A DNA stretch of 64,000 bases from Candidatus Anstonellales archaeon (GCA_038896535.1 JAWACY010000001.1:320001-384000), one strand, 5' to 3'. Positions 8,084 to 18,562 are shown, numbered from the stretch's first letter. Translations and numbers: made by a program. The notes: a model not told the origin generated them from the sequence alone.

Positions 8084-10552
8084 TTAGCAACCCATATCAA
8101 TAAGAGTTTGTTTATCTACTTGCATTCTTCTTGCAGTATTACATAAATTTGTTTTCCAATCACCAGAATAACAATCTTTGCATTCTTTATAAAATGCTGC
8201 ATATAATTTACCAGCTTCTATAGCATCTTTATAATTTGGTAAGTTCAATGCATTTAAAAAAGAAGCAAAATCAGATTGCATGCATGCACTGTTAGATAAT
8301 TTATAAGTGCTGCTGCTAGTGCTTGTACTTCCAGAACTGCCAGTGTTTATTGTTGTTGAACCAACTGAGCTTCTTGAGCCAGTTGAGCCAGTTGAGCTTG
8401 TTGAACTTGTTGAACCAGTTGAGCTTGATAATGTACAGCAAAGATTTCTTGTAGTTATTGACATTTTATCGCAGTTTCCACCAGATTTTAATATATCATC
8501 AAAAATATCAGCAAGTTGAATACTATTTATATTTACTATGCCCATTGCAGTGAGTAAAGCAGTCAATTGCCTTTTTTCTGATTCTGTTGTAGCAAAGCTC
8601 ATTGCTGAAGCTTTTTGATCTGCTTTATTATATGCTTGTTCAAATTTCATTAATAAAATGCATATGCCATCATTTATATCGAATGGGTTATATTCACTGC
8701 CCATGCATTTTTTCACATTATCTGGAAAGCTTGCGTAATCTGATGGTTTATAATCAAAGCTAAAAATACCCAAGCCATCTATTTTGCAAGCATTCCCCGC
8801 ATTACTATTTGTTGAATCGCAATTTGTTCCATATTTTATTGTAATGCTTCCTTGACAGCCAGCTTTTTTATATGCATCATTTAATTGATTTATTAAATTA
8901 TTATCAACATTTATGCCCTTTGAATTATTATAGCTTATGAAGCATGCATCGCCTTTGCTTTTATAATATGCTATTGCTCTTGCTACAACTCCATCAATTT
9001 CATTTGCATCAGCAGCAACATAAACCGCATCAGTAGCTTTGCAAGCATTGCTGTTTATGTTAGAAGAAAGCCCCTTAATAATGGGTGTCGGCTCAGAGAA
9101 ATCAATGCAAAAACTACATTTGTATATAGTTGGCGATTTTGAGCTTATATTTATAATTTCTGGCAAAATTTCTGGTTTAACAACGCTTTTTACTGAATAA
9201 TCCTGTATAGGGAATACAAAAGAGCATAAATCTGCATTATCAGCATTATACCTCAATGCCGGCAATACATTGCCATTTTTATAATCATTCCCTCCAGTAA
9301 TGTTGCTCCCTCCAGTATAGTATTTACTACAAAGGTCAAACCAGACATTAAATCTATATTTTGCATCTTCTATATTTCCTGTTGTTTTATTATAGAGAGT
9401 TAAAGCACAATTATCGCAATCAAAAATGGAGGTTGATTCAAAAAATGGCTGTGGTGCAAATCCCAAAAGGCCTTCTCTAATCAAAGCTGGAAGTATTGTA
9501 AATAACTGCTCGTAAATGGCAACATAATCATTATCACCATAAACACATCTATCTGTTTTTGGCAGATAAACATAATATATGAAAGATGATTTATTGAATT
9601 CTTTATTGATAAATGATATTAATGGCAATACTTCCTGTATCATTATTGCATCTCCACCACAGAATCCATTATCATCTTTTGTTCTACTAAATCTTGAGTC
9701 AATGCCAAAAGCAAAGCCATCTATAGAATTAAGAACTTGTTGATTGCTTGCATAGTTCGATTTATTTAAATAAAATCTTCTGTTTTCATATATCTCATCA
9801 AGAGATATTGATAAGAAAACGCTGCAATTAGGGCAAGCATTTTTTATATCAAGAACTTGTTTCATTACTTTATTGAATGTTGCTTGCTCTTTTTTAGGAT
9901 TTATTTCTGTAGCTACAAAAACTGGACCAAGGCCATTAATTGACTTTGCTATATCAAAAGCATTATCATTTGCAGGAGGGCTTCCATAATAATTTGTATC
10001 TAAGCCATCTTTATTATAGAATGCAAAAAAAGGTATCACATTTGCAGAAAGCATGCAGCCAATATTCTGTTTCGTGCCCAAAGGTCTTGCATAGCCATTA
10101 TTATCCCCAGTTATAAATCTTACTGAATATGTATAGCTATAATTGCAGTAAGCATTTGCTTCATTAAAATCTATTATTTTTGGGCCTTGCGCAAGCCCAA
10201 AAGGCCTTGCTCTTGTTTTTGTTCTGTTTAGTTCTTCCAAAAATTTTTTTACATCACTAAGATTTGAGGCATTCATTGTGAGAAAAGAACAATTTCCATT
10301 TACAAGAGATGTATCAGTAAAAAAGAAAAACCTCCTTGCAGTTTTATTGGTACAAGCGAATAAATAACATAAATTATCAGATGTGGGTTGAGCAATAGAA
10401 ACATTTAAATTATCATAGATTGTTTGTGCTAAATAATTTTCTCCAAATAGCCTTGCTTCTCCTTCTATTGTTGTACAACCGAATAAAAATAATAATAGAA
10501 TAATTACCGAATATTGCAATTTATTCATAACATTCATAATGATTTTACCCAT
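8084..10552 (-). CDS. Large Cys-rich surface lipoprotein with a TIM-barrel-like region, a degenerate lysozyme/SLT-like region and a Ser/Thr/Gly linker
   Basis: Lipobox LFGC; many Cys and NxS/T sequons; SLT-like pattern AADANEIDGVVARAIAYYKS..GLGIFSF..YNPFD; SSTGSTSSTSSTGS tract. Confidence 0.6.
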   Translation of the reverse strand: MGKIIMNVMNKLQYSVIILLLFLFGCTTIEGEARLFGENYLAQTIYDNLNVSIAQPTSDNLCYLFACTNKTARRFFFFTDTSLVNGNCSFLTMNASNLSDVKKFLEELNRTKTRARPFGLAQGPKIIDFNEANAYCNYSYTYSVRFITGDNNGYARPLGTKQNIGCMLSANVIPFFAFYNKDGLDTNYYGSPPANDNAFDIAKSINGLGPVFVATEINPKKEQATFNKVMKQVLDIKNACPNCSVFLSISLDEIYENRRFYLNKSNYASNQQVLNSIDGFAFGIDSRFSRTKDDNGFCGGDAIMIQEVLPLISFINKEFNKSSFIYYVYLPKTDRCVYGDNDYVAIYEQLFTILPALIREGLLGFAPQPFFESTSIFDCDNCALTLYNKTTGNIEDAKYRFNVWFDLCSKYYTGGSNITGGNDYKNGNVLPALRYNADNADLCSFVFPIQDYSVKSVVKPEILPEIINISSKSPTIYKCSFCIDFSEPTPIIKGLSSNINSNACKATDAVYVAADANEIDGVVARAIAYYKSKGDACFISYNNSKGINVDNNLINQLNDAYKKAGCQGSITIKYGTNCDSTNSNAGNACKIDGLGIFSFDYKPSDYASFPDNVKKCMGSEYNPFDINDGICILLMKFEQAYNKADQKASAMSFATTESEKRQLTALLTAMGIVNINSIQLADIFDDILKSGGNCDKMSITTRNLCCTLSSSTGSTSSTSSTGSTGSRSSVGSTTINTGSSGSTSTSSSTYKLSNSACMQSDFASFLNALNLPNYKDAIEAGKLYAAFYKECKDCYSGDWKTNLCNTARRMQVDKQTLIDMGC

Positions 10553-10736: not shown

Positions 10737-11456
10737 ATGGGCAGGAGAAAAATAAAATTTAATGCTGTCGAGGATAATGTTATTAAAAAATTAAATGAAC
10801 GCCAAACAGCATTAAAGCAGAATAACAATCAATTAACATTTGCTAAGCTTGCTGAGCAGTTATTGAAGATTCAAGGGCAAGCAAAGCAGGCTTATAAAAA
10901 CCACGGCAGAGCAGAATTGTCAAAATTTGGTCTTTTGACATTGCAAGAAGCATATGATATGCTAAGGCAAAATGGAATAAATATAACATTTAGAGCATTC
11001 TCAGGCAGGATAGAGAGAAAAACTATACCAACAATAATAATAGGAAAAAGAAGATACTTATCAAAGGATGTTGTTGCACACATGATAGATCTGAATAACA
11101 AATTTTACAAAATAAGAGAAGCTTATGAGTTATATAGTTCAGTCAAACCAATCAATTTCAGAGCGTTTTTGGGCAGAATAGAAAAAGGAGCAATCCCTTC
11201 AGTAAAAATAGGGCATACAAAATACATTCCAAAAGAGGTTATAGAAACATTTTTGCATGTTGGAAAGAATTATTATACAGTAAAAGAGGTTGTTGATGAA
11301 TTGAGAAAGTTAGGGGTAAATATTAAAAGAGCGACAATTGAAAGAAGGCTTGACAGGGGCTCAATACCATTCCATAAAATAGGAGGAAAAAGATACATAC
11401 ACAAAGATGTTGCTAATGAATTAATAAATTATGAATTATCAAAACAGAAGAAATAA
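10737..11456 (+). CDS. DNA-binding protein with three tandem excisionase-like (HTH_17) helix-turn-helix domains
   Basis: Three repeats of T..EA/V..L....I..RA...RI(E/D)(R/K)G.IP..KIG..(R/K)YI.K(D/E)V. GAGGTAGGAG RBS. Confidence 0.8.
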   Translation: MGRRKIKFNAVEDNVIKKLNERQTALKQNNNQLTFAKLAEQLLKIQGQAKQAYKNHGRAELSKFGLLTLQEAYDMLRQNGINITFRAFSGRIERKTIPTIIIGKRRYLSKDVVAHMIDLNNKFYKIREAYELYSSVKPINFRAFLGRIEKGAIPSVKIGHTKYIPKEVIETFLHVGKNYYTVKEVVDELRKLGVNIKRATIERRLDRGSIPFHKIGGKRYIHKDVANELINYELSKQKK

Positions 11457-11532: not shown

Positions 11533-11790
11533 TTAATATTCAAAATCTGGTTCTATTTTCATCCAAGTGCCATTTATAAATGCCCATAATGTCTTAGTAG
11601 TTGAGTCATAAACAAGGTTTTGTTTGTTTGCTATTTCTATGCCTCTGTCTATCTCTATGAATGGATATCTATAAGCCCATGAAAATTTCTCTCTAAAGAT
11701 GTTTGGCTCTATTAAGGCTAATCTTTTTGTTTCTTCTTTTCTCCTCTCGCAGTATGCAATAACTTCCTCAATCTCATTTTTTGGAGGCAT
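11533..11790 (-). CDS. Small hypothetical protein
   Basis: 85-aa ORF with globular composition, divergent from the ATPase operon and sharing its TATA box. Confidence 0.7.
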   Translation of the reverse strand: MPPKNEIEEVIAYCERRKEETKRLALIEPNIFREKFSWAYRYPFIEIDRGIEIANKQNLVYDSTTKTLWAFINGTWMKIEPDFEY

Positions 11791-11810
11791 AATAATATAA
11801 TAGAAAGCTT

Positions 11811-11818
11811 TTTATAAA
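11811..11818. promoter_or_regulatory. Palindromic TATA box (TTTATAAA) shared by divergent genes
   Basis: About 20 nt from both ATG 11790 (-) and ATG 11838 (+). Confidence 0.6.
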
Positions 11819-11837
11819 TAAATGATTAAATAAGATT

Positions 11838-12674
11838 ATGGTAACTCAAAAAACAGCATTTTATGCATCAATTGGTTTAGGCATATTTGGTGTTTTTGCA
11901 GCGCTTGCAGCTGGAGGAGGAATAATAACAATCATAGGCCTGTTTTTTGCAGCTCTTGGGATAATAGGAAGTGTAGCATTCTATAAATATGGTTACATGT
12001 TAGTTCCATGGCTTACGCAACAAACAAAAACTGTATTCATTACTTCTGATGGATATGAAATACCTCCAAGCCAGGATGTAATAATAAAAAAAGGTGAGAA
12101 TGGAGTTTATTATGCAACAGCATTCCTCGGATTAAGACTTTATCAATCTGCTGTTGAAATGACAGAAGAGCAGTTAAGAGCTTATAACACGCTTTTTGAA
12201 CGGGCTATGTCTGGATTTAAAAAAGTTGTGAAAATTGGCTATATAATGCATGCTGTTGATATAGCAGAAAAGAAAAGAGATTTAGAAAGTAAAAAGGCAG
12301 AGGCACAATTAAGATTGCAAAGAGAAAGAGAAAAGACTGAGCCAGATCCATTAAGGATTGAAAGGTTTGAAAGAGAAGTATCATATTGGAGTGCACAAAT
12401 AGATAAATTAACAAGGGGGCTAAGGCCAATGAAAGTTGTTTTGTATGCAATGACAACAGATGCTGGAATAACAAGAGATGAAGCAATAGCAAGAGTAAAT
12501 AATAATGTGTCTGAGCTAAGAACATTATTGAGCAATTCATTGAATTGCGAAGTTGTAAGGCTTGTTGCTGATGAGATGATGACTGCTTTTGAGTGGGAGA
12601 GATTTTTGCCTTTAACACCAGAAGATATAGAAGCAAGGGTTGAACTTGAAAAATCAGGGGGTATGCAAATATGA
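11838..12674 (+). CDS. Two-TM membrane-anchored protein; possible VirB4 N-terminal/accessory component
   Basis: Two Gly-rich N-terminal TM helices, a coiled coil and an alpha/beta tail; ATGA overlap with the ATPase gene. Confidence 0.65.
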   Translation: MVTQKTAFYASIGLGIFGVFAALAAGGGIITIIGLFFAALGIIGSVAFYKYGYMLVPWLTQQTKTVFITSDGYEIPPSQDVIIKKGENGVYYATAFLGLRLYQSAVEMTEEQLRAYNTLFERAMSGFKKVVKIGYIMHAVDIAEKKRDLESKKAEAQLRLQREREKTEPDPLRIERFEREVSYWSAQIDKLTRGLRPMKVVLYAMTTDAGITRDEAIARVNNNVSELRTLLSNSLNCEVVRLVADEMMTAFEWERFLPLTPEDIEARVELEKSGGMQI

Positions 12675-14254
12675 CAGCAGCAAAGGTTCCTGCAGGTAAG
12701 CTTACAATAACTGAAACAACAAATGTTGAAATTGGAAGGAGAAATATTTTGCATCATCCACCAGAGCCACCGCCAGAGTTTATCATGGCAGATATAACAA
12801 ACGGCATATATATAGGCAGAACAGCTGAATTAAATGCTCCATTCTTTTGGGCTCCAAAGTTTACAACAAACCCGCATATAGCTATTGTAGGTATTTCTGG
12901 TAGCGGAAAATCATACTTCATAAAGACTTTCCTTGTTAGAGCAAGCTTTGTCTGGAATGCTAATGCAATAATAGTTGATTGGGCTGGAGAATATAAAGAT
13001 TGGGTCTTAGAGACCGGAGGGAAGTTAATAGCATTGGGTAAGGGCAATAATCTTAACTTGCTTGATCTTGGAGGGATGAGGCCATATGACAGGATAAAGC
13101 AAGTCATGAGAACTCTGGAGTTGCTTACAGATATTGCCCAGTATCCTGAACAAAAAAGATTGACAGAACAAGCAATAGAAGAAGCATATGTAAGAGCAAA
13201 ATTTAAACTTGATTCAAGAGAGCAAAAAGATGAGCTTGGAAATGTACTTGAGCCACCAACATTAAAAGATGTTGTCAAAATACTTGAGGAATTAAGGCAA
13301 ACAGGAGCTTATGAATACCCATCTGAGCTTGAAAATTCTATTCATAGGCTGAAGCAGTTTACAAGACAAGGGGAAGATTATTTCGCGCAAAAGAGCACAA
13401 TAAATTTAGATGAAATTGTTTCCTCTGGCTTGGTTGACCTTGATTTAACTGGCTTGCCAGATGAAACAATGAGGGCTTTGGGAGCATTAACAGTTTTACA
13501 ATTTATTAAAGAAAGAATGCGTCTTGAAGGCGCGCAAGAAGTTAAAGGCATAAAGCTTATAACAGTTGTTGATGAGGCATGGAAAATTGCAGGAGAAGAA
13601 AATTCTGACATAGTCATGATAGTAAGAGAGGGAAGAAAATATAACTTTTCTTTGATTGTTGCGAGCCAAAACCCAACCGATATTAGTAAGAGCATATTTA
13701 GCAATGTTGGCACGACATTTATATTAAAAACTAAATTCGAAACATTTCTCGATTATTTGCAAGGCAGCTTGAGATTTAGCAATTACATGAGAGAAAAAAT
13801 CATGCAGTTTGGCGTTGGGCAAGCCTGCGTTAACATGGCTTTTCATGTTCCATTGCAGTTTTCACAAACATTCATAATAAATAAAATCGAAGGCGAAGAG
13901 CCTATTAAAGATTTCTTCTTAACATTCGAAGGAATAGAAGGTGTTACTATGGGATTTGCAATATCAATAAAGAAAAATGAATTTAGAGATACGCTAAGAA
14001 AAAAGCTTGGGTTAAATGAAGAAGAAGTACAAGCAATAACAGCAAAATTTGAAAAATTATCTAGGAGAATGAATGTTGTTGATTTTGTTATCGAGCTAGA
14101 GCTAAAAAATGCACAGAGGAAAAGAATAGTAGATTTGCTCAAAGAATGGGGTGTTGACGATGCAACAATTATTAATATATTCACAAAAGTTGATTTTAAG
14201 AAAAGCGGTCAAAAAGGCAGCTTGCCAGTAAGGCTCTTAGTTAAAAAAGAATAA
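12671..14254 (+). CDS. VirB4/HerA/FtsK-superfamily ATPase (DUF87-like)
   Basis: NPHIAIVGISGSGKS (Walker A), IIVDWAGEY, TVVDEAW (Walker B) and REGRKYNFSLIVASQ (Arg finger and Gln sensor). Confidence 0.9.
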   Translation: MTAAKVPAGKLTITETTNVEIGRRNILHHPPEPPPEFIMADITNGIYIGRTAELNAPFFWAPKFTTNPHIAIVGISGSGKSYFIKTFLVRASFVWNANAIIVDWAGEYKDWVLETGGKLIALGKGNNLNLLDLGGMRPYDRIKQVMRTLELLTDIAQYPEQKRLTEQAIEEAYVRAKFKLDSREQKDELGNVLEPPTLKDVVKILEELRQTGAYEYPSELENSIHRLKQFTRQGEDYFAQKSTINLDEIVSSGLVDLDLTGLPDETMRALGALTVLQFIKERMRLEGAQEVKGIKLITVVDEAWKIAGEENSDIVMIVREGRKYNFSLIVASQNPTDISKSIFSNVGTTFILKTKFETFLDYLQGSLRFSNYMREKIMQFGVGQACVNMAFHVPLQFSQTFIINKIEGEEPIKDFFLTFEGIEGVTMGFAISIKKNEFRDTLRKKLGLNEEEVQAITAKFEKLSRRMNVVDFVIELELKNAQRKRIVDLLKEWGVDDATIINIFTKVDFKKSGQKGSLPVRLLVKKE

Positions 14255-14269
14255 AGGAAAGGTGGTAAA

Positions 14270-14776
14270 ATGGATTTAGATATAATAACTGGAAAAGAAG
14301 TTAATAAAGGATATAGAGTTAAAGAAGACATTGTAATAAGAACTATTGCATGGATTAAAAAGAAAGCAGGCTTATATCAGGGAAATAATTTATATGTTGC
14401 AGAAGAATCGCTTGAAGAATACAAAAAAAGAAGGAGCAGGTTTGAGAGATACGCAATTTTTGGCACTATTTTTGTTTTTGTAGTGCTTGTTTTTTCTATC
14501 TTACTCCCAATTACTTCAGGGGATTATCAAAAGATTATTTCAAATATTGTTGCAGTCTTAGGCCTTACTTTTGTTACTTTCTTTCTTGTATTATTCTCTT
14601 ACATGCCAGCAATAGAAGATAAAATAACAATAATAAGGGAAGAAAAGAAAAAGGAGGAGAAAGAAAATAAAGAGGCTGATGAATTAAAAAAAGAGGCCAA
14701 AGAAAGGGAAATTAAAGAGAAAGAGGAGAAAAAAGATATAAAAGAGAAGAAAACATATAAGAGGAGAAAGAAATAG
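14270..14776 (+). CDS. Two-TM membrane protein with a highly charged tail
   Basis: Two hydrophobic helices and a K/E-rich C-terminus. GGTGGT RBS. Confidence 0.75.
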   Translation: MDLDIITGKEVNKGYRVKEDIVIRTIAWIKKKAGLYQGNNLYVAEESLEEYKKRRSRFERYAIFGTIFVFVVLVFSILLPITSGDYQKIISNIVAVLGLTFVTFFLVLFSYMPAIEDKITIIREEKKKEEKENKEADELKKEAKEREIKEKEEKKDIKEKKTYKRRKK

Positions 14777-14785
14777 GTTGATTGA

Positions 14786-15490
14786 ATGGAGCCAGAAATA
14801 ATAACATTAACATTAAAAGTAATTAAGCAAGCAAATATTAACGATGTTTATAATGTAATATCTTCATTATCAGGATTTAAGATATATAAAACACAGAAAG
14901 CTGTTTATGTAGCAATTGTTGAGAAAGAAGATGTTGAAAAAAGGCCTACGAAATTTATTATTGTCGAATTTTTGCAGGATTCAATAAATATGCATTTTAC
15001 CGTTTCAGAAGATGAAAGTTCTTCTATAAGAAAGCTCGAAGTAATTTCGAAAGCCCTGCCAATAATAGAACTTGTTTTAGATAGCTATTCATTGTCAATC
15101 AAGCCCTTATTATCAATCGTTGATTCTGCACTTACTGAAATGTTGCATAAATTTACGAGAGAGATGAAAGATGTATTAATAGAGAACGATAGACTTAGGG
15201 ATAAAATAGTAGAGCAAAGCAGCAAAATAAAAAGGCAGGAAGAGCAAATTAAAGAACTGACTTCAAAGCTTTATGAAATAAACTCAGAAAATGCTGAATT
15301 AAGGCTTAAGCTTGGCAAATATGAAAAGCCGAGCCAAGAGGCATTAGAATCAATGTTGATGGATTGGATTAAAGAGCACGGCGGCACGATAGATATAGCT
15401 GAATTCTCCAGAATAAACAATGTTCCTATTTCAAGGATTGAAGATACTCTTAACGGGCTTGTTAATAAAGGTTTCATAAAGCCGCTGTGA
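14786..15490 (+). CDS. Coiled-coil protein with a C-terminal winged helix
   Basis: Heptads at about aa 125-180, then LMDWIKEHGGTIDIAEFSRINNVPISRIEDTLNGLVNKGFI. Confidence 0.75.
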   Translation: MEPEIITLTLKVIKQANINDVYNVISSLSGFKIYKTQKAVYVAIVEKEDVEKRPTKFIIVEFLQDSINMHFTVSEDESSSIRKLEVISKALPIIELVLDSYSLSIKPLLSIVDSALTEMLHKFTREMKDVLIENDRLRDKIVEQSSKIKRQEEQIKELTSKLYEINSENAELRLKLGKYEKPSQEALESMLMDWIKEHGGTIDIAEFSRINNVPISRIEDTLNGLVNKGFIKPL

Positions 15491-15494
15491 TATC

Positions 15495-17999
15495 ATGGCA
15501 AAAAGATTTGCTATAAATAAAGATTATAAGTATATAAAGAATTTTAAAATTGCGCAAAGGTCTTTTATTGATAATTTATTGGATCAATTTAAAACAAAAA
15601 AACCAAAGCAAGAGAAAGTAAAAGAAATAAAAGAAAAAGTGCAAGTAAAAGGTATTGACATAATGCTAATGAAGGCACTTCCACTATTGATATTTTTGGG
15701 TTTAATAGGTTATTTTTATATAACATTCCAAAACATCACTGCATCATTGGCAGAACAACCAGTAATTGGAGAAGAAAAAATAAAATTTCCAGAGATAAGG
15801 AAAGCACTTTTTATTGATTATGGGGCCAGAGATAATAGGATATATGCTGCTCTTATAAACCTATACCTTCCTGAAGAAAAGATATACACTATTCATCTAT
15901 CTAGAATGATAAGACCATTTACAGGCAATATTTTCATTTACTCAGATGATATATACCCAAAAACAGAAGATACATTAAAATTCATAGAAACTCTTGAAAA
16001 AGAGCTAAATAACAAAGGTTTTGTTGTCCAGAGAATTTATTCAAAAGAGCAGTTAAATTACATTGACAGCAACAGCATTTTTGTTTTGCCTTCTGATAAG
16101 TTACCTGCAAATATAGAGAATTATTTTGATAAGATGAGTGAGAAGGGCATAACAATATTAATAATAAGCTCTACTCCAACAAATGAGCAGATAGAACTTG
16201 GTATAAGGGATATAACATCTTACTGGGCATCAAAAGATATTAGATTTATTCCATCAACATTTAAACCATCTGGCATGAAAATGTATCAAGCTTTTTATTA
16301 TGTTGACAAAGCATCTTTGATAAATGGAGGGGCTTCATATATACTGACTAAAGGTGGGGATGAATTTATTTTTATTCCAGGCTCTGTTGGGGATACAATA
16401 ACAAACCATTGGAGAAACAGCCAAGAAGCTGCTCTGGATACAGCAAATATAATAATTGAGTTCGTAAAAGGGTTAAGGGAATATAAAAAGGAAGAAGGAG
16501 AAAGATTAGTCCCGGATGAAATATTATATAATTTACCTAATGGAAGCCATTATGTATTAATTGAAAACAATGATAAAAATAAAAGTGCCCTTAATGTTTT
16601 ATTAACAGCAGATTTAGATGGCAATACATTTTTTTACAAGCCTTTGACTGTTGTTAAAGATTATAATGGCTACATTTATCCTAATGAGCCAATGCCAATA
16701 TTGCCATTTTATGTCAGGAATGTGCCAATTGTATTTGAATACCTCCCAGATCCTGAGCAGGCATTATTTTCATCAATAGGATTAAAATTAGTAAATGCAA
16801 ACAATCAAGTTGTTGATAATGTGACATTAGCACAAGGAAGCCAAGTTCCACTTAATAGCATATCAACAGTTCAATATATAAATAAGGATTTAAATGATAC
16901 TAGGTATTTAATAGAACTTGTTGATTTAAGAAAAAACACTGTTTATTCAAGATCTGTATTAGAACTTGGAACTCTTGAAATAAGGCCAGAGCCTAAATTT
17001 GATGAAGGCAAGATAACATTTTATTTTGAAATAGCAGGAAGGCCGACAAAAGTTGGTAATGTTGTTTTATCTTTGGTTGGTGGTGATTTTACTGCTGGAA
17101 CTAGAAATAGCGATAGGATAACAATAGATATGTCAGGTTATTATGGAGGAGCAATACCAGCAGGCAATTATACTTTTAAGTTTTCAATAGAGGGGCTTGG
17201 GCAAAGAGAAGTAAATATATATAATCCCCCAAAAATAGGCATATCAAGGCTTTTTAGCATAGAAAGAATGGCATTAATTTTAATTGCAGGCATTATATAT
17301 GCTGTTGGCATGATGGTAAAAAGAGCAGAAGAATTGCCATACAATATAGATATCCCAGATTTTGCCCCAGTTGAATACACAACATTGGAGTTAAGCAAGG
17401 AAGAAATAAAGAAGGCATTTGAAGTAATAAGCGATTATTATAAATGGAAATACATACCGTTAAGGCTTGAAGAGATAAAGAGGGGCATATCAATGATGCT
17501 AGGCAGAAAAGACCTTGTCATTAATGATTTTAATCTTGAAATTGTTTTGGGTAATCTTGAAAGAGACGGAATAGTAAAAGAGGAATCTGGATTTTATGTA
17601 TTAACAGAATGGCTGAAATCTGGTTTTACAATACAGCAATTGATAGCATTTAGGTTGATAAGGGATGCTGCAATAGCACATGCTTTGCCATTCAAAAATA
17701 TAACAAGGGCCCTTCCACATACCAAGGTTACATTTCCATGGCAGGAGATGTGGATTTATTTATACAGCTCATTAGATAAAGAAAGGATAACTGATGCAAT
17801 ATTAAATAATGTCGGAAAAACAGAAGCATTGCAAATAATACTTGTTCCAGATGAAAGGGAAGCATATACATTTCACACACTTTTAAGCAGTGGGCGGAAG
17901 AAAGATTCTCTTATTAAAGCTTATATAGATAATGGCATTATATTTTTATTCACGACACAAGAATTAATAGATAAGATAGAACAACTTAGTTTGTCATAA
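15495..17999 (+). CDS. Large membrane protein (two TMs, ~500-aa extracellular region, cytoplasmic C-terminal domain)
   Basis: TMs at about aa 62-78 and 593-610; beta-rich region with NxT/S sequons between them; last gene of the operon. Confidence 0.75.
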   Translation: MAKRFAINKDYKYIKNFKIAQRSFIDNLLDQFKTKKPKQEKVKEIKEKVQVKGIDIMLMKALPLLIFLGLIGYFYITFQNITASLAEQPVIGEEKIKFPEIRKALFIDYGARDNRIYAALINLYLPEEKIYTIHLSRMIRPFTGNIFIYSDDIYPKTEDTLKFIETLEKELNNKGFVVQRIYSKEQLNYIDSNSIFVLPSDKLPANIENYFDKMSEKGITILIISSTPTNEQIELGIRDITSYWASKDIRFIPSTFKPSGMKMYQAFYYVDKASLINGGASYILTKGGDEFIFIPGSVGDTITNHWRNSQEAALDTANIIIEFVKGLREYKKEEGERLVPDEILYNLPNGSHYVLIENNDKNKSALNVLLTADLDGNTFFYKPLTVVKDYNGYIYPNEPMPILPFYVRNVPIVFEYLPDPEQALFSSIGLKLVNANNQVVDNVTLAQGSQVPLNSISTVQYINKDLNDTRYLIELVDLRKNTVYSRSVLELGTLEIRPEPKFDEGKITFYFEIAGRPTKVGNVVLSLVGGDFTAGTRNSDRITIDMSGYYGGAIPAGNYTFKFSIEGLGQREVNIYNPPKIGISRLFSIERMALILIAGIIYAVGMMVKRAEELPYNIDIPDFAPVEYTTLELSKEEIKKAFEVISDYYKWKYIPLRLEEIKRGISMMLGRKDLVINDFNLEIVLGNLERDGIVKEESGFYVLTEWLKSGFTIQQLIAFRLIRDAAIAHALPFKNITRALPHTKVTFPWQEMWIYLYSSLDKERITDAILNNVGKTEALQIILVPDEREAYTFHTLLSSGRKKDSLIKAYIDNGIIFLFTTQELIDKIEQLSLS

Positions 18000-18002
18000 A
18001 TT

Positions 18003-18562
18003 CATATAACCAACAAAAACAAACTTCTTTGGAAGCTTCTTGTGAAGGGGAAAAAGAAAAGCTGGGCTTAGTTAATAGAAAAGAATAAAAAATAAAAGAA
18101 GAGTTAAGATTAAGAAGAGCAGAAATTATAATAAAACAAAACAAAGACAAAATATCAAGTGAAAACAAACAAAAGAAATACAAGCTAAATTAAGCGCAAC
18201 AAAAGATGAAGAAGAGAAAAATACATTAAGGATAATAGTAATAATAGAATGTAAATCCGAAGAAGAAATTCCAAAAGCCTTAAAAGAGTTAATGAAAAAC
18301 TTCAATGAAAATCTTATAGAAGATAAAAAAAGACAATCTTGATGAAGAGAAATTAAAAGCCATAATAAAAGTCATTGAAAATTATTATCAAAATATATTG
18401 AGCTTCTATATTCCTTGTGATGTAATTGTGATGTTGTGATTTAATGTTGTGATTTAATTGTGACGTAATCCGAAATTATAAATTATATAAATTATAAAAA
18501 TAAAAACAGCATATAAATAATTAAAAACCATTATTTGGGAATACATACAATGCTGGCTAACA
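18003..18562 (+). repeat. Dispersed ~520-bp repeat, copy 1 (decayed ORF, TGTGA cluster, promoter)
   Basis: 27-nt identity 18170-18196 = 59143-59169; 26-nt identity 18444-18469 = 59398-59423; colinear similarity between these blocks. Confidence 0.85.

Follow-up and report, generated by a model that had tools for sequence, protein, structure and literature searches.

The closest described archaeal counterparts of the locus reported here are the crenarchaeal DNA importers Ced (CedA, CedA1, CedA2, CedB, CedD and CedE; Sulfolobales) and Ted (TedA, TedB and TedC; Thermoproteales) (PMC9905601, PMC11868833). For Sulfolobales it is reported that CedB and CedD have N-terminal domains which superpose on different portions of the one in VirB4 (PMC11868833). 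Among Bacteria, the Patescibacteria have a chromosomal type IV secretion system (T4SS), described as consisting of VirB4, TrsD, PrgI/VirB3, VirB6 and arrays of VirB2-like pilins, as having lost the relaxase and as needed for epibiotic growth (PMC12102498). TrsD, in the same account, is a separate protein with remote homology to the N-terminal portion of VirB4, next to which it is usually found; it occurs in Patescibacteria and on pGO1-type plasmids (PMC12102498). Here we describe a five-gene operon on a 64,000-nt stretch of DNA (the window; JAWACY010000001.1:320001-384000) from a Candidatus Anstonellales archaeon (GCA_038896535.1). The operon is probably the inner-membrane core of a T4SS-like, that is, T4SS-derived, envelope machine that is Micrarchaeota-specific, chromosomal and vertically inherited. 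We found no published description of this operon or of any T4SS-like system in Micrarchaeota, including in the text of Sakai 2022 and Golyshina 2017, whose supplementary tables may list the genes.

The source genome is 752 kb in 5 contigs and is 91% complete. Close relatives of its proteins are labelled Micrarchaeota, Micrarchaeia, Anstonellales or Bilamarchaeaceae, and the current NCBI name of the phylum is Microcaldota. Five co-directional genes on the plus strand (11838-17999), here called A to E, make up one conserved operon. Gene A (11838-12674, 278 aa) encodes a transmembrane (TM) helical hairpin and a cytoplasmic alpha/beta domain predicted to have the fold of the VirB4 N-terminal domain. 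Gene B (12671-14254, 527 aa) encodes a P-loop ATPase of the VirB4/CedB/HerA group, with a C-terminal motor domain and a tail. The product of gene C (14270-14776, 168 aa) has a cytoplasmic N-terminal domain, two TM helices and a Lys/Arg/Glu-rich tail, and that of gene D (14786-15490, 234 aa) is soluble, its N-terminal alpha/beta domain being followed by a coiled coil and, at the C-terminus, a winged helix. Gene E (15495-17999, 834 aa) encodes a protein with two TM segments, ~500 aa predicted to lie outside the cell and a ~230-aa cytoplasmic domain. The genes are as tightly coupled as the sequence-only reading had it, with an overlap of 4 nt between A and B and gaps of 15 nt (B/C), 9 nt (C/D) and 4 nt (D/E), and their order is conserved in relatives.

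By analogy, this machine would be of the same kind as Ced, Ted and the chromosomal T4SS of Patescibacteria. Like Ced and Ted it would be an archaeal, chromosomal, domesticated T4SS relative with no relaxase (none among the ORFs scanned), with a VirB4-like motor whose N-terminal domain appears to be divided between proteins (CedB and CedD in Ced), a putative VirB2-like pilin and a candidate polytopic membrane partner, and the top NCBIfam match of B is CedB. Unlike in those systems, the N-terminal piece seems to be a separate membrane-anchored protein that is not an ATPase, in place of a second ATPase; C, D and E are absent there, and the organism that carries the operon is a DPANN symbiont. In addition, B scores 81.2 bits (77.1 in the genome scan) against the CedB equivalog NF041017, below its cut-off of 700 bits, and the CedA model finds nothing in the genome.

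Like the T4SS of Patescibacteria, the operon is near-universal and chromosomal in ultrasmall episymbionts, appears to place the N-terminal part of VirB4 on a separate protein beside VirB4 (TrsD there, A here as judged by fold), and is accompanied by arrays of divergent, putatively VirB2-like pilins, with the relaxase mostly absent. It differs in being archaeal, in having no recognisable VirB3 or VirB6, and in the genes C, D and E, for which the bacterial system has no counterpart. At the sequence level no family similar to protein A was detected, TrsD being compared by description. Essentiality has been shown in the bacterial system.

As a conjugative reference we used the T4SS of plasmid R388 (TrwK/VirB4, TrwM/VirB3, TrwI/VirB6 and TrwL/VirB2; PDB 7o41-7o43, 8rtb and 8rtd). 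The likeness lies in the predicted cytoplasmic fold of A, which corresponds to TrwK ~219-384, and in a pilin family that weakly matches TrwL/VirB2 models. Unlike R388, the operon comes with no outer-membrane core, coupling protein or relaxase, its motor is encoded by two genes and it is not on a mobile element. The sequence-only reading had held that a described system of the Ced/Ted or conjugative T4SS type, or an integrated plasmid, matching the genes one to one would speak against a novel system. We saw no such mapping: C to E reach no curated family cut-off, B stays far below the CedB cut-off and a plasmid search gave three weak matches.

VirB4-like ATPases are also known from another group of DPANN archaea. 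Giant SPEARE-type surface proteins of Nanohaloarchaeota are described as containing VirB4/TraG-like ATPase domains and have been proposed to act at the host interface (PMC10266531). There the ATPase is fused to a giant protein with immunoglobulin (Ig) repeats, in contrast to the five-gene operon with a putatively split motor reported here. We noted that a genome of Micrarchaeia that lacks the operon (G111; L127, L131, C1:781266-794954) has open reading frames (ORFs) of 2942 and 3404 aa with a VirB4/HerA-like ATPase stretch, which recall SPEARE.

Gene products and a putative split motor

Protein B matches DUF87 (1e-13), AAA_10 (1.4e-11) and TraG P-loop (7.9e-11) in Pfam, and the Walker motifs, A (GISGSGKS) as well as B (VVDEAW), fall in invariant alignment columns. 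The best NCBIfam scores after CedB (81 bits) were those of VirB4 models (78 bits for VirB4_plasma, then 62, 55 and 43), CedD (64 bits) and HerA (at most 41 bits), all far under the cut-offs. For VirB4, B reached 43.2 bits against a cut-off of 643 (TIGR00929), 78.1 against 590 (NF045975) and 62.3 against 325 (NF045971); the HerA models gave 31-41 bits against cut-offs of 800-970. A sequence search of PDB returned HerA (3.5e-8) and the VirB4 C-terminal domain (4ag5, 1e-6). Because B aligned only with the C-terminal parts of the CedB and VirB4 models (for example, B 42-354 with positions 250-538 of the 590-position CedB model), it lacks the N-terminal domain carried by VirB4, CedB and CedD. The P-loop domain is followed by a conserved tail of ~110 aa. 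In several lineages a stand-alone ORF of 98-100 aa that resembles this tail occurs after B (L017:9518-9814, L042, L134:6587-6883 and L135:6404-6706), which suggests that the tail is an independent module.

We aligned 107 sequences of A from an exhaustive profile search and modelled the protein with AlphaFold2. The model (predicted local distance difference test 94.5; predicted template-modelling score, pTM, 0.83) has helices at 4-24 and 29-63, which would form a hairpin, and an alpha/beta domain at 73-272. In a Foldseek search against PDB, the top seven matches were all TrwK/VirB4 of plasmid R388 (best E 1.8e-3, probability 1.00). The modelled cytoplasmic domain corresponds to TrwK ~219-384, which is the half of the VirB4 N-terminal domain nearer to the C-terminus; no other match in PDB covered the whole domain. 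The sequence of A gave nothing real against PDB and has no detectable similarity to any family among those compared, to which the TrsD profile did not belong. We regard the fold evidence for A as a piece of the VirB4 N-terminal domain as moderate; it becomes convincing only in combination with position, as A overlaps the gene for an ATPase that lacks exactly that domain.

In combination, the model and the gene order indicate a VirB4-type motor split over two genes, in which A would be a TrsD-like, split-off N-terminal piece and B the P-loop half. The comparison with TrsD covered the modelled fold of A and its position beside B, both of which agree with the TrsD arrangement. The ATPase had been taken for a complete VirB4/HerA-like protein in the sequence-only reading, and this is not borne out: B comprises the C-terminal P-loop part only, and the N-terminal domain appears to be encoded by A.

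The calls of two TM segments in A, C and E and of a coiled coil plus winged helix-turn-helix (wHTH) domain in D held up in hydropathy and family scans, and B and D have no hydrophobic segments. In C, the hydrophobic segments are at 63-81 and 89-107. Most lineages have a CxxC...CxxC motif in the N-terminal domain of C (27 orthologues aligned), the cysteines of which have been lost from the copy in the window. Matches of C to NCBIfam are faint and sub-threshold, to a zinc finger (TIGR04104, 6 of 27) and to the mobilome membrane protein CD3337/EF1877 (4 of 27). For D (alignment of 31), the best PDB profile match of the winged helix is CdvB/ESCRT-III (2xvc, E 2.2e-5) and the remaining matches are coiled-coil noise; Pfam gives a TrmB wHTH at 7e-4. 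We read the winged helix of D as probably a generic adaptor domain. In the ESM Atlas, D found only clusters of the same phylum.

In E, hydrophobic segments at 56-74 and 583-601 flank the ~500 aa predicted to be extracellular, and the cytoplasmic C-terminal domain of ~230 aa is the best-conserved part (alignment of 28). No Pfam family was found in the 28 members of E except for two single matches at chance level. Residues 467-574 gave one weak PDB profile match, to an Ig-like glycan-binding protein (9.7e-5). A word-based homologue search with E retrieved 3 proteins, and the ESM Atlas offered only a poor model of E itself (pTM 0.27) and no neighbour of use. Comparison of E with D by hhalign gave a match of 17 columns only (probability 3.5%).

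Conservation, distribution and descent

B was found in all 41 genomes of the same order (57-80% identity). The order A-B-C-D-E is kept in 8 of 8 loci from different families, and all five genes were recovered in 15 of a further 20 loci; in the remaining five, a contig end or an ORF chosen on the wrong strand by a crude ORF picker interfered. A larger set of 80 named loci, drawn from 432 relatives, was then searched with a hidden Markov model (HMM) for each of the five families, and a gene was counted where the contig has room for it. A lies directly before B in 65 of 73 loci, and C, D and E follow B in 69 of 70, 70 of 70 and 56 of 56 loci, respectively. All five genes are also kept in class-level relatives (L132-L135). 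In two families (f13 and f14), A is tandemly duplicated and the 98-100-aa ORF like the tail of B is present after B. Failure of the genes to co-occur in relatives had been named beforehand as an outcome that would count against a system; they do co-occur, with their order kept.

Of 401 genomes sampled from the phylum, 351 have a member of the A family; among the 188 of high quality, 167 do. Two unpublished genomes (G216 and G061) are part of this tally. Four families have no A (f16, 0/7; f20, 0/8; f22, 0/4; f23, 0/4), and in a fifth it is rare (f17, 3/21). Five genomes of these families, each 90-97% complete, have no B orthologue either. The A profile retrieved only 242 clusters from 1.84 billion representative proteins. 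No cluster is longer than 466 aa, so no fusion of A to the ATPase was seen. Of 10 A clusters that we looked up, 6 were named; the five with an organism are all from Micrarchaeia and one is just a "hypothetical protein." Among the clusters looked up, no named protein from beyond the phylum thus belongs to the A family.

A maximum-likelihood tree was made from 32 B sequences. All 28 copies from operons fall into a single clade (100/100), grouped by their taxonomic families, and four paralogues fall outside. This fits vertical descent plus an old duplication, and descent of the operon, as judged from the tree, looks vertical. The paralogous clusters have the composition A'-B'-D' (L021, L022 and L024) or A'-B' (L023), without C or E. 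A 525-aa gene beside them, which from its sequence we take to encode the beta subunit of phenylalanyl-tRNA synthetase, was treated as unrelated to the system.

The composition of the paralogous clusters raises the question of whether A, B and D alone form the ATPase machine, C and E being co-transcribed envelope proteins with a separate role. The rapid evolution of E fits this idea: identity is 19-33% among locus orthologues (60% for one closer homologue), compared with 56-77% among B orthologues and 34-45% among B paralogues. We consider it quite unlikely, however, given that C and E accompany B in almost all loci with room across orders, that the spacing in the window is 4-15 nt, and that the cytoplasmic domain is the most conserved part of E, as expected for a docking surface.

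Family scans of the window were made with Pfam on 34 ORFs (~1-32.7 kb), and over this range the operon is flanked by genes for ribosomal proteins, a geranylgeranyl-reductase-like protein, an amino-acid kinase, a Pelota/eRF1-like protein, a topoisomerase and a class I lysyl-tRNA synthetase. The housekeeping flanks vary from genome to genome. As the sequence-only reading had proposed, composition looks native (GC of the operon 0.30-0.36, within the 0.28-0.37 of the whole window), and no integrase, relaxase, coupling protein, NurA, Mre11 or Rad50 was found among the 34 scanned ORFs, the search for a relaxase being confined to these and not genome-wide.

VirB4-like ATPases are typical of mobile elements, and a gene for an excisionase-type helix-turn-helix (HTH) protein lies 380 nt upstream of the operon, so the possibility that the operon is what is left of a conjugative plasmid or element that once integrated has to be weighed. 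We find this extremely improbable. The flanking ribosomal and housekeeping genes differ between genomes, GC is unremarkable, A is spread across most genomes of the phylum, B follows taxonomy, and a tblastn search of 72,556 plasmids with B gave only 3 weak matches (22-23% identity). The HTH gene, moreover, is unlinked to the operon in relatives. It encodes 239 aa (10737-11456, plus strand), with C-terminal matches to HTH_17 (4.5e-9) and the excisionase-type model TIGR01764 (4.4e-7), and by eye contains two earlier repeats of its ~50-aa module; in the loci of relatives that we compared, it does not stand beside the operon.

Putative pilins, polytopic proteins and candidate function

At two loci (L133 and L136), small proteins with a signal-peptide-like segment and two hydrophobic helices are encoded just upstream of A. 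They match the Pfam family TrbC/VirB2 at 7.2e-6 (26.6 bits; curated cut-off 27.9) and 1.8e-5, and T4SS_pilin as well. Iterated searches from these proteins define a putative pilin family; among 24 aligned members, 13 matched TrbC and 10 matched T4SS_pilin at E ≤ 0.01, and 3 matched the TrwL model; against the TrwL sequence in PDB, the best E was 0.1. Pilin genes form variable arrays of 1-12 copies per genome. The source genome (G000) has three, one at C1:277580-277936 and two in tandem at C2:64162-64894, all outside the window.

A second family found near the operon comprises polytopic proteins of 300-550 aa with 5-8 hydrophobic segments, for which we found no match in Pfam or among PDB sequences. 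In L023, L024 and L136 a pilin gene is followed by a polytopic gene and then by A and B, and in L134 and L135 arrays of polytopic genes directly precede the operon. An HMM search identified 12 paralogues in the source genome, in two tandem arrays of six (C3:12402-20602, L138; C4:1561-8646, L137). They are divergent, with 12-23% identity to the first row of the alignment, and represent a large investment for a 752-kb genome.

The pilin family was detected in 130 of 151 class-level genomes that are at least 90% complete, a tally that includes the unpublished G061. It is absent from f16 (0/7), f20 (0/5) and f22-f25 (0/1 each), was found in 1 of 5 genomes of f17, and is present in all other families (31 of 32 genomes in f13). 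The families without pilins are those that lack A. Five operon-negative genomes have neither pilins nor polytopic proteins, and five operon-positive genomes all have pilins. As related genomes are not independent, we treat this co-distribution as a pattern and not as a statistical test. The derivation from a T4SS is strengthened by the combination of the predicted VirB4 N-terminal-domain fold of A with VirB2/TrbC-like pilins that adjoin the operon in other lineages and share its phyletic pattern. Together with the housekeeping flanks and the grouping of B by taxonomy, these observations support the proposal of the sequence-only reading that the operon is T4SS-derived and chromosomally fixed.

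The same observations bear on whether the operon encodes a membrane-anchored DNA pump of the FtsK/HerA kind with a housekeeping role in chromosome segregation, division or repair. B is the sole DUF87 match and the sole HerA/FtsK-type ATPase found in the 752-kb genome and is unusually conserved, and the winged helix of D resembles that of the division protein CdvB. Nevertheless, the modelled fold of A is that of the VirB4 N-terminal domain and not of the HerA HAS-barrel or an FtsK domain, HerA models score B below those of CedB and VirB4, and genes for NurA, Mre11 and Rad50 do not neighbour the operon. Several class lineages lack the operon altogether, and it co-varies with pilins. We therefore regard a housekeeping pump as very unlikely.

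We propose that the operon specifies the core of an envelope machine in which B would oligomerise as the ATPase. A would tether this motor to the membrane and provide the module at the N-terminus through which a VirB4 in one piece makes contact with the membrane components. C (two TM helices, an ancestral Cys4 motif and a basic tail) and E would be lineage-specific membrane-spanning and surface parts, and D a cytoplasmic adaptor. The pilins would form the filament of the machine, and the polytopic proteins with 5-8 TM segments perhaps its channel. We infer that A binds B and that the complex builds a pilus or channel. By analogy with the known systems, it may transport DNA or other macromolecules between symbiont and host, and import, as in Ced, would be the more attractive direction for an organism so reduced.

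Several observations weigh against this proposal. No component exceeds the curated cut-off of the Ced, VirB4 or HerA families, and for this reason we class the operon as a relative that would work like Ced/Ted or the Patescibacteria-type T4SS and not as a member of a named system. C, D and E have no T4SS counterpart and none of them reaches a curated family cut-off, E being without any match and C and D having only weak ones under the threshold; the best pilin also remains under its cut-off (26.6 against 27.9 bits). The Pfam model TrbL (VirB6/TrbL) found nothing in the source genome, and the CedA model NF041796 gave no match there at E ≤ 0.1 and matched 1 of 20 polytopic members (9.9e-4). Pilin and polytopic genes of the source genome are unlinked to the operon, and among 59 named loci with room, a pilin gene lies upstream of A in 12 and a polytopic gene in none. 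As there is no coupling protein or relaxase among the scanned ORFs of the window, export of DNA by conjugation is not indicated. Finally, the whole set is missing from some lineages of the class, so the operon is widespread and not universal, and is not indispensable.

The lack of a coupling protein and a relaxase in the scanned range is also what would be expected if the operon encoded a device for pilus assembly and adhesion only, with the split VirB4 extracting and polymerising VirB2-like pilins for attachment to hosts or surfaces and no transport taking place. VirB4 is reported to be needed for pilus biogenesis in known T4SSs (PMC12102498), and variable pilin arrays are as expected of surface-exposed filaments. 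However, handling of a cytoplasmic ligand is suggested by D, with its winged helix, and by C, with its basic tail and ancestral Cys4 motif, and Ced and Ted, the closest archaeal relatives, are described as transporting DNA (PMC9905601). A device for attachment alone thus seems unlikely to us.

A more specific possibility concerns the contact between symbiont and host. Cryo-electron tomography of Microcaldus variisymbioticus ARM-1 with its Metallosphaera host is reported to show host-derived nanotubes that enter the symbiont via a ~21-nm-wide barrel of unidentified make-up beneath the surface layer (PMC11329633). It is conceivable, if doubtful, that the operon encodes this barrel, that is, a symbiont-side docking and import apparatus. 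A hexameric split-VirB4 motor would then pull DNA, nucleotides or proteins from the host, and the machine would be what archaea, by a domestication of their own, have in place of the essential T4SS of Patescibacteria.

For DPANN archaea the question arises of how they come by the things that they do not make themselves. To this question the operon contributes concrete candidates: a motor that is conserved, three envelope or adaptor proteins particular to the lineage, arrays of pilins and a family of polytopic proteins. Ultrasmall symbionts of both domains, Patescibacteria and Micrarchaeota, would each have retained a chromosomal relative of the T4SS that lacks a relaxase, has pilin arrays and carries the N-terminal module of VirB4 as a detached piece. 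This parallel points to a common solution to the episymbiotic lifestyle.

Adjacent genes and sequence features

A divergent ORF of 85 aa precedes the operon (11533-11790, minus strand). It encodes a conserved small protein with no family match, present in 31 of 41 relatives with up to 73% identity. The sequence-only reading had tied it to the system through a shared TATA box. It is a real gene, as its conservation in relatives shows, but its location varies, ~22 kb from the operon in one genome (G001) and on another contig in a second (G006). Given that it is unlinked to the operon in other genomes, we exclude it from the system. A TATA-like element, TTTATAAATA (11811-11820, plus strand), read from the sequence as a putative promoter, lies inside the 47-nt intergenic spacer, ~23 nt before the start codon of A.

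On the other side of the operon, in 9 of 15 loci examined, a gene of ~375-417 aa lies directly 3' of E, in most cases convergent with it (loci named for this gene are L014-L018, L028, L029, L033, L037, L039 and L043). Its N-terminus reads MKIAFFTDTYLPN.DGV, and by eye the product resembles a GT4 glycosyltransferase. We dropped it as a candidate partner, as it is absent from that position in the window. There, E is followed by a 535-nt A-rich stretch without a long ORF (18000-18534), within which ~5 tandem copies of an 11-13-nt unit (TTGTGATGTAA-like) occupy 18415-18469.

Further upstream, at 8084-10552 on the minus strand, an 822-aa Cys-rich protein is encoded that has an N-terminal hydrophobic segment and a Ser/Thr/Gly-rich linker and matches no Pfam family. 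It is probably a surface glycoprotein.

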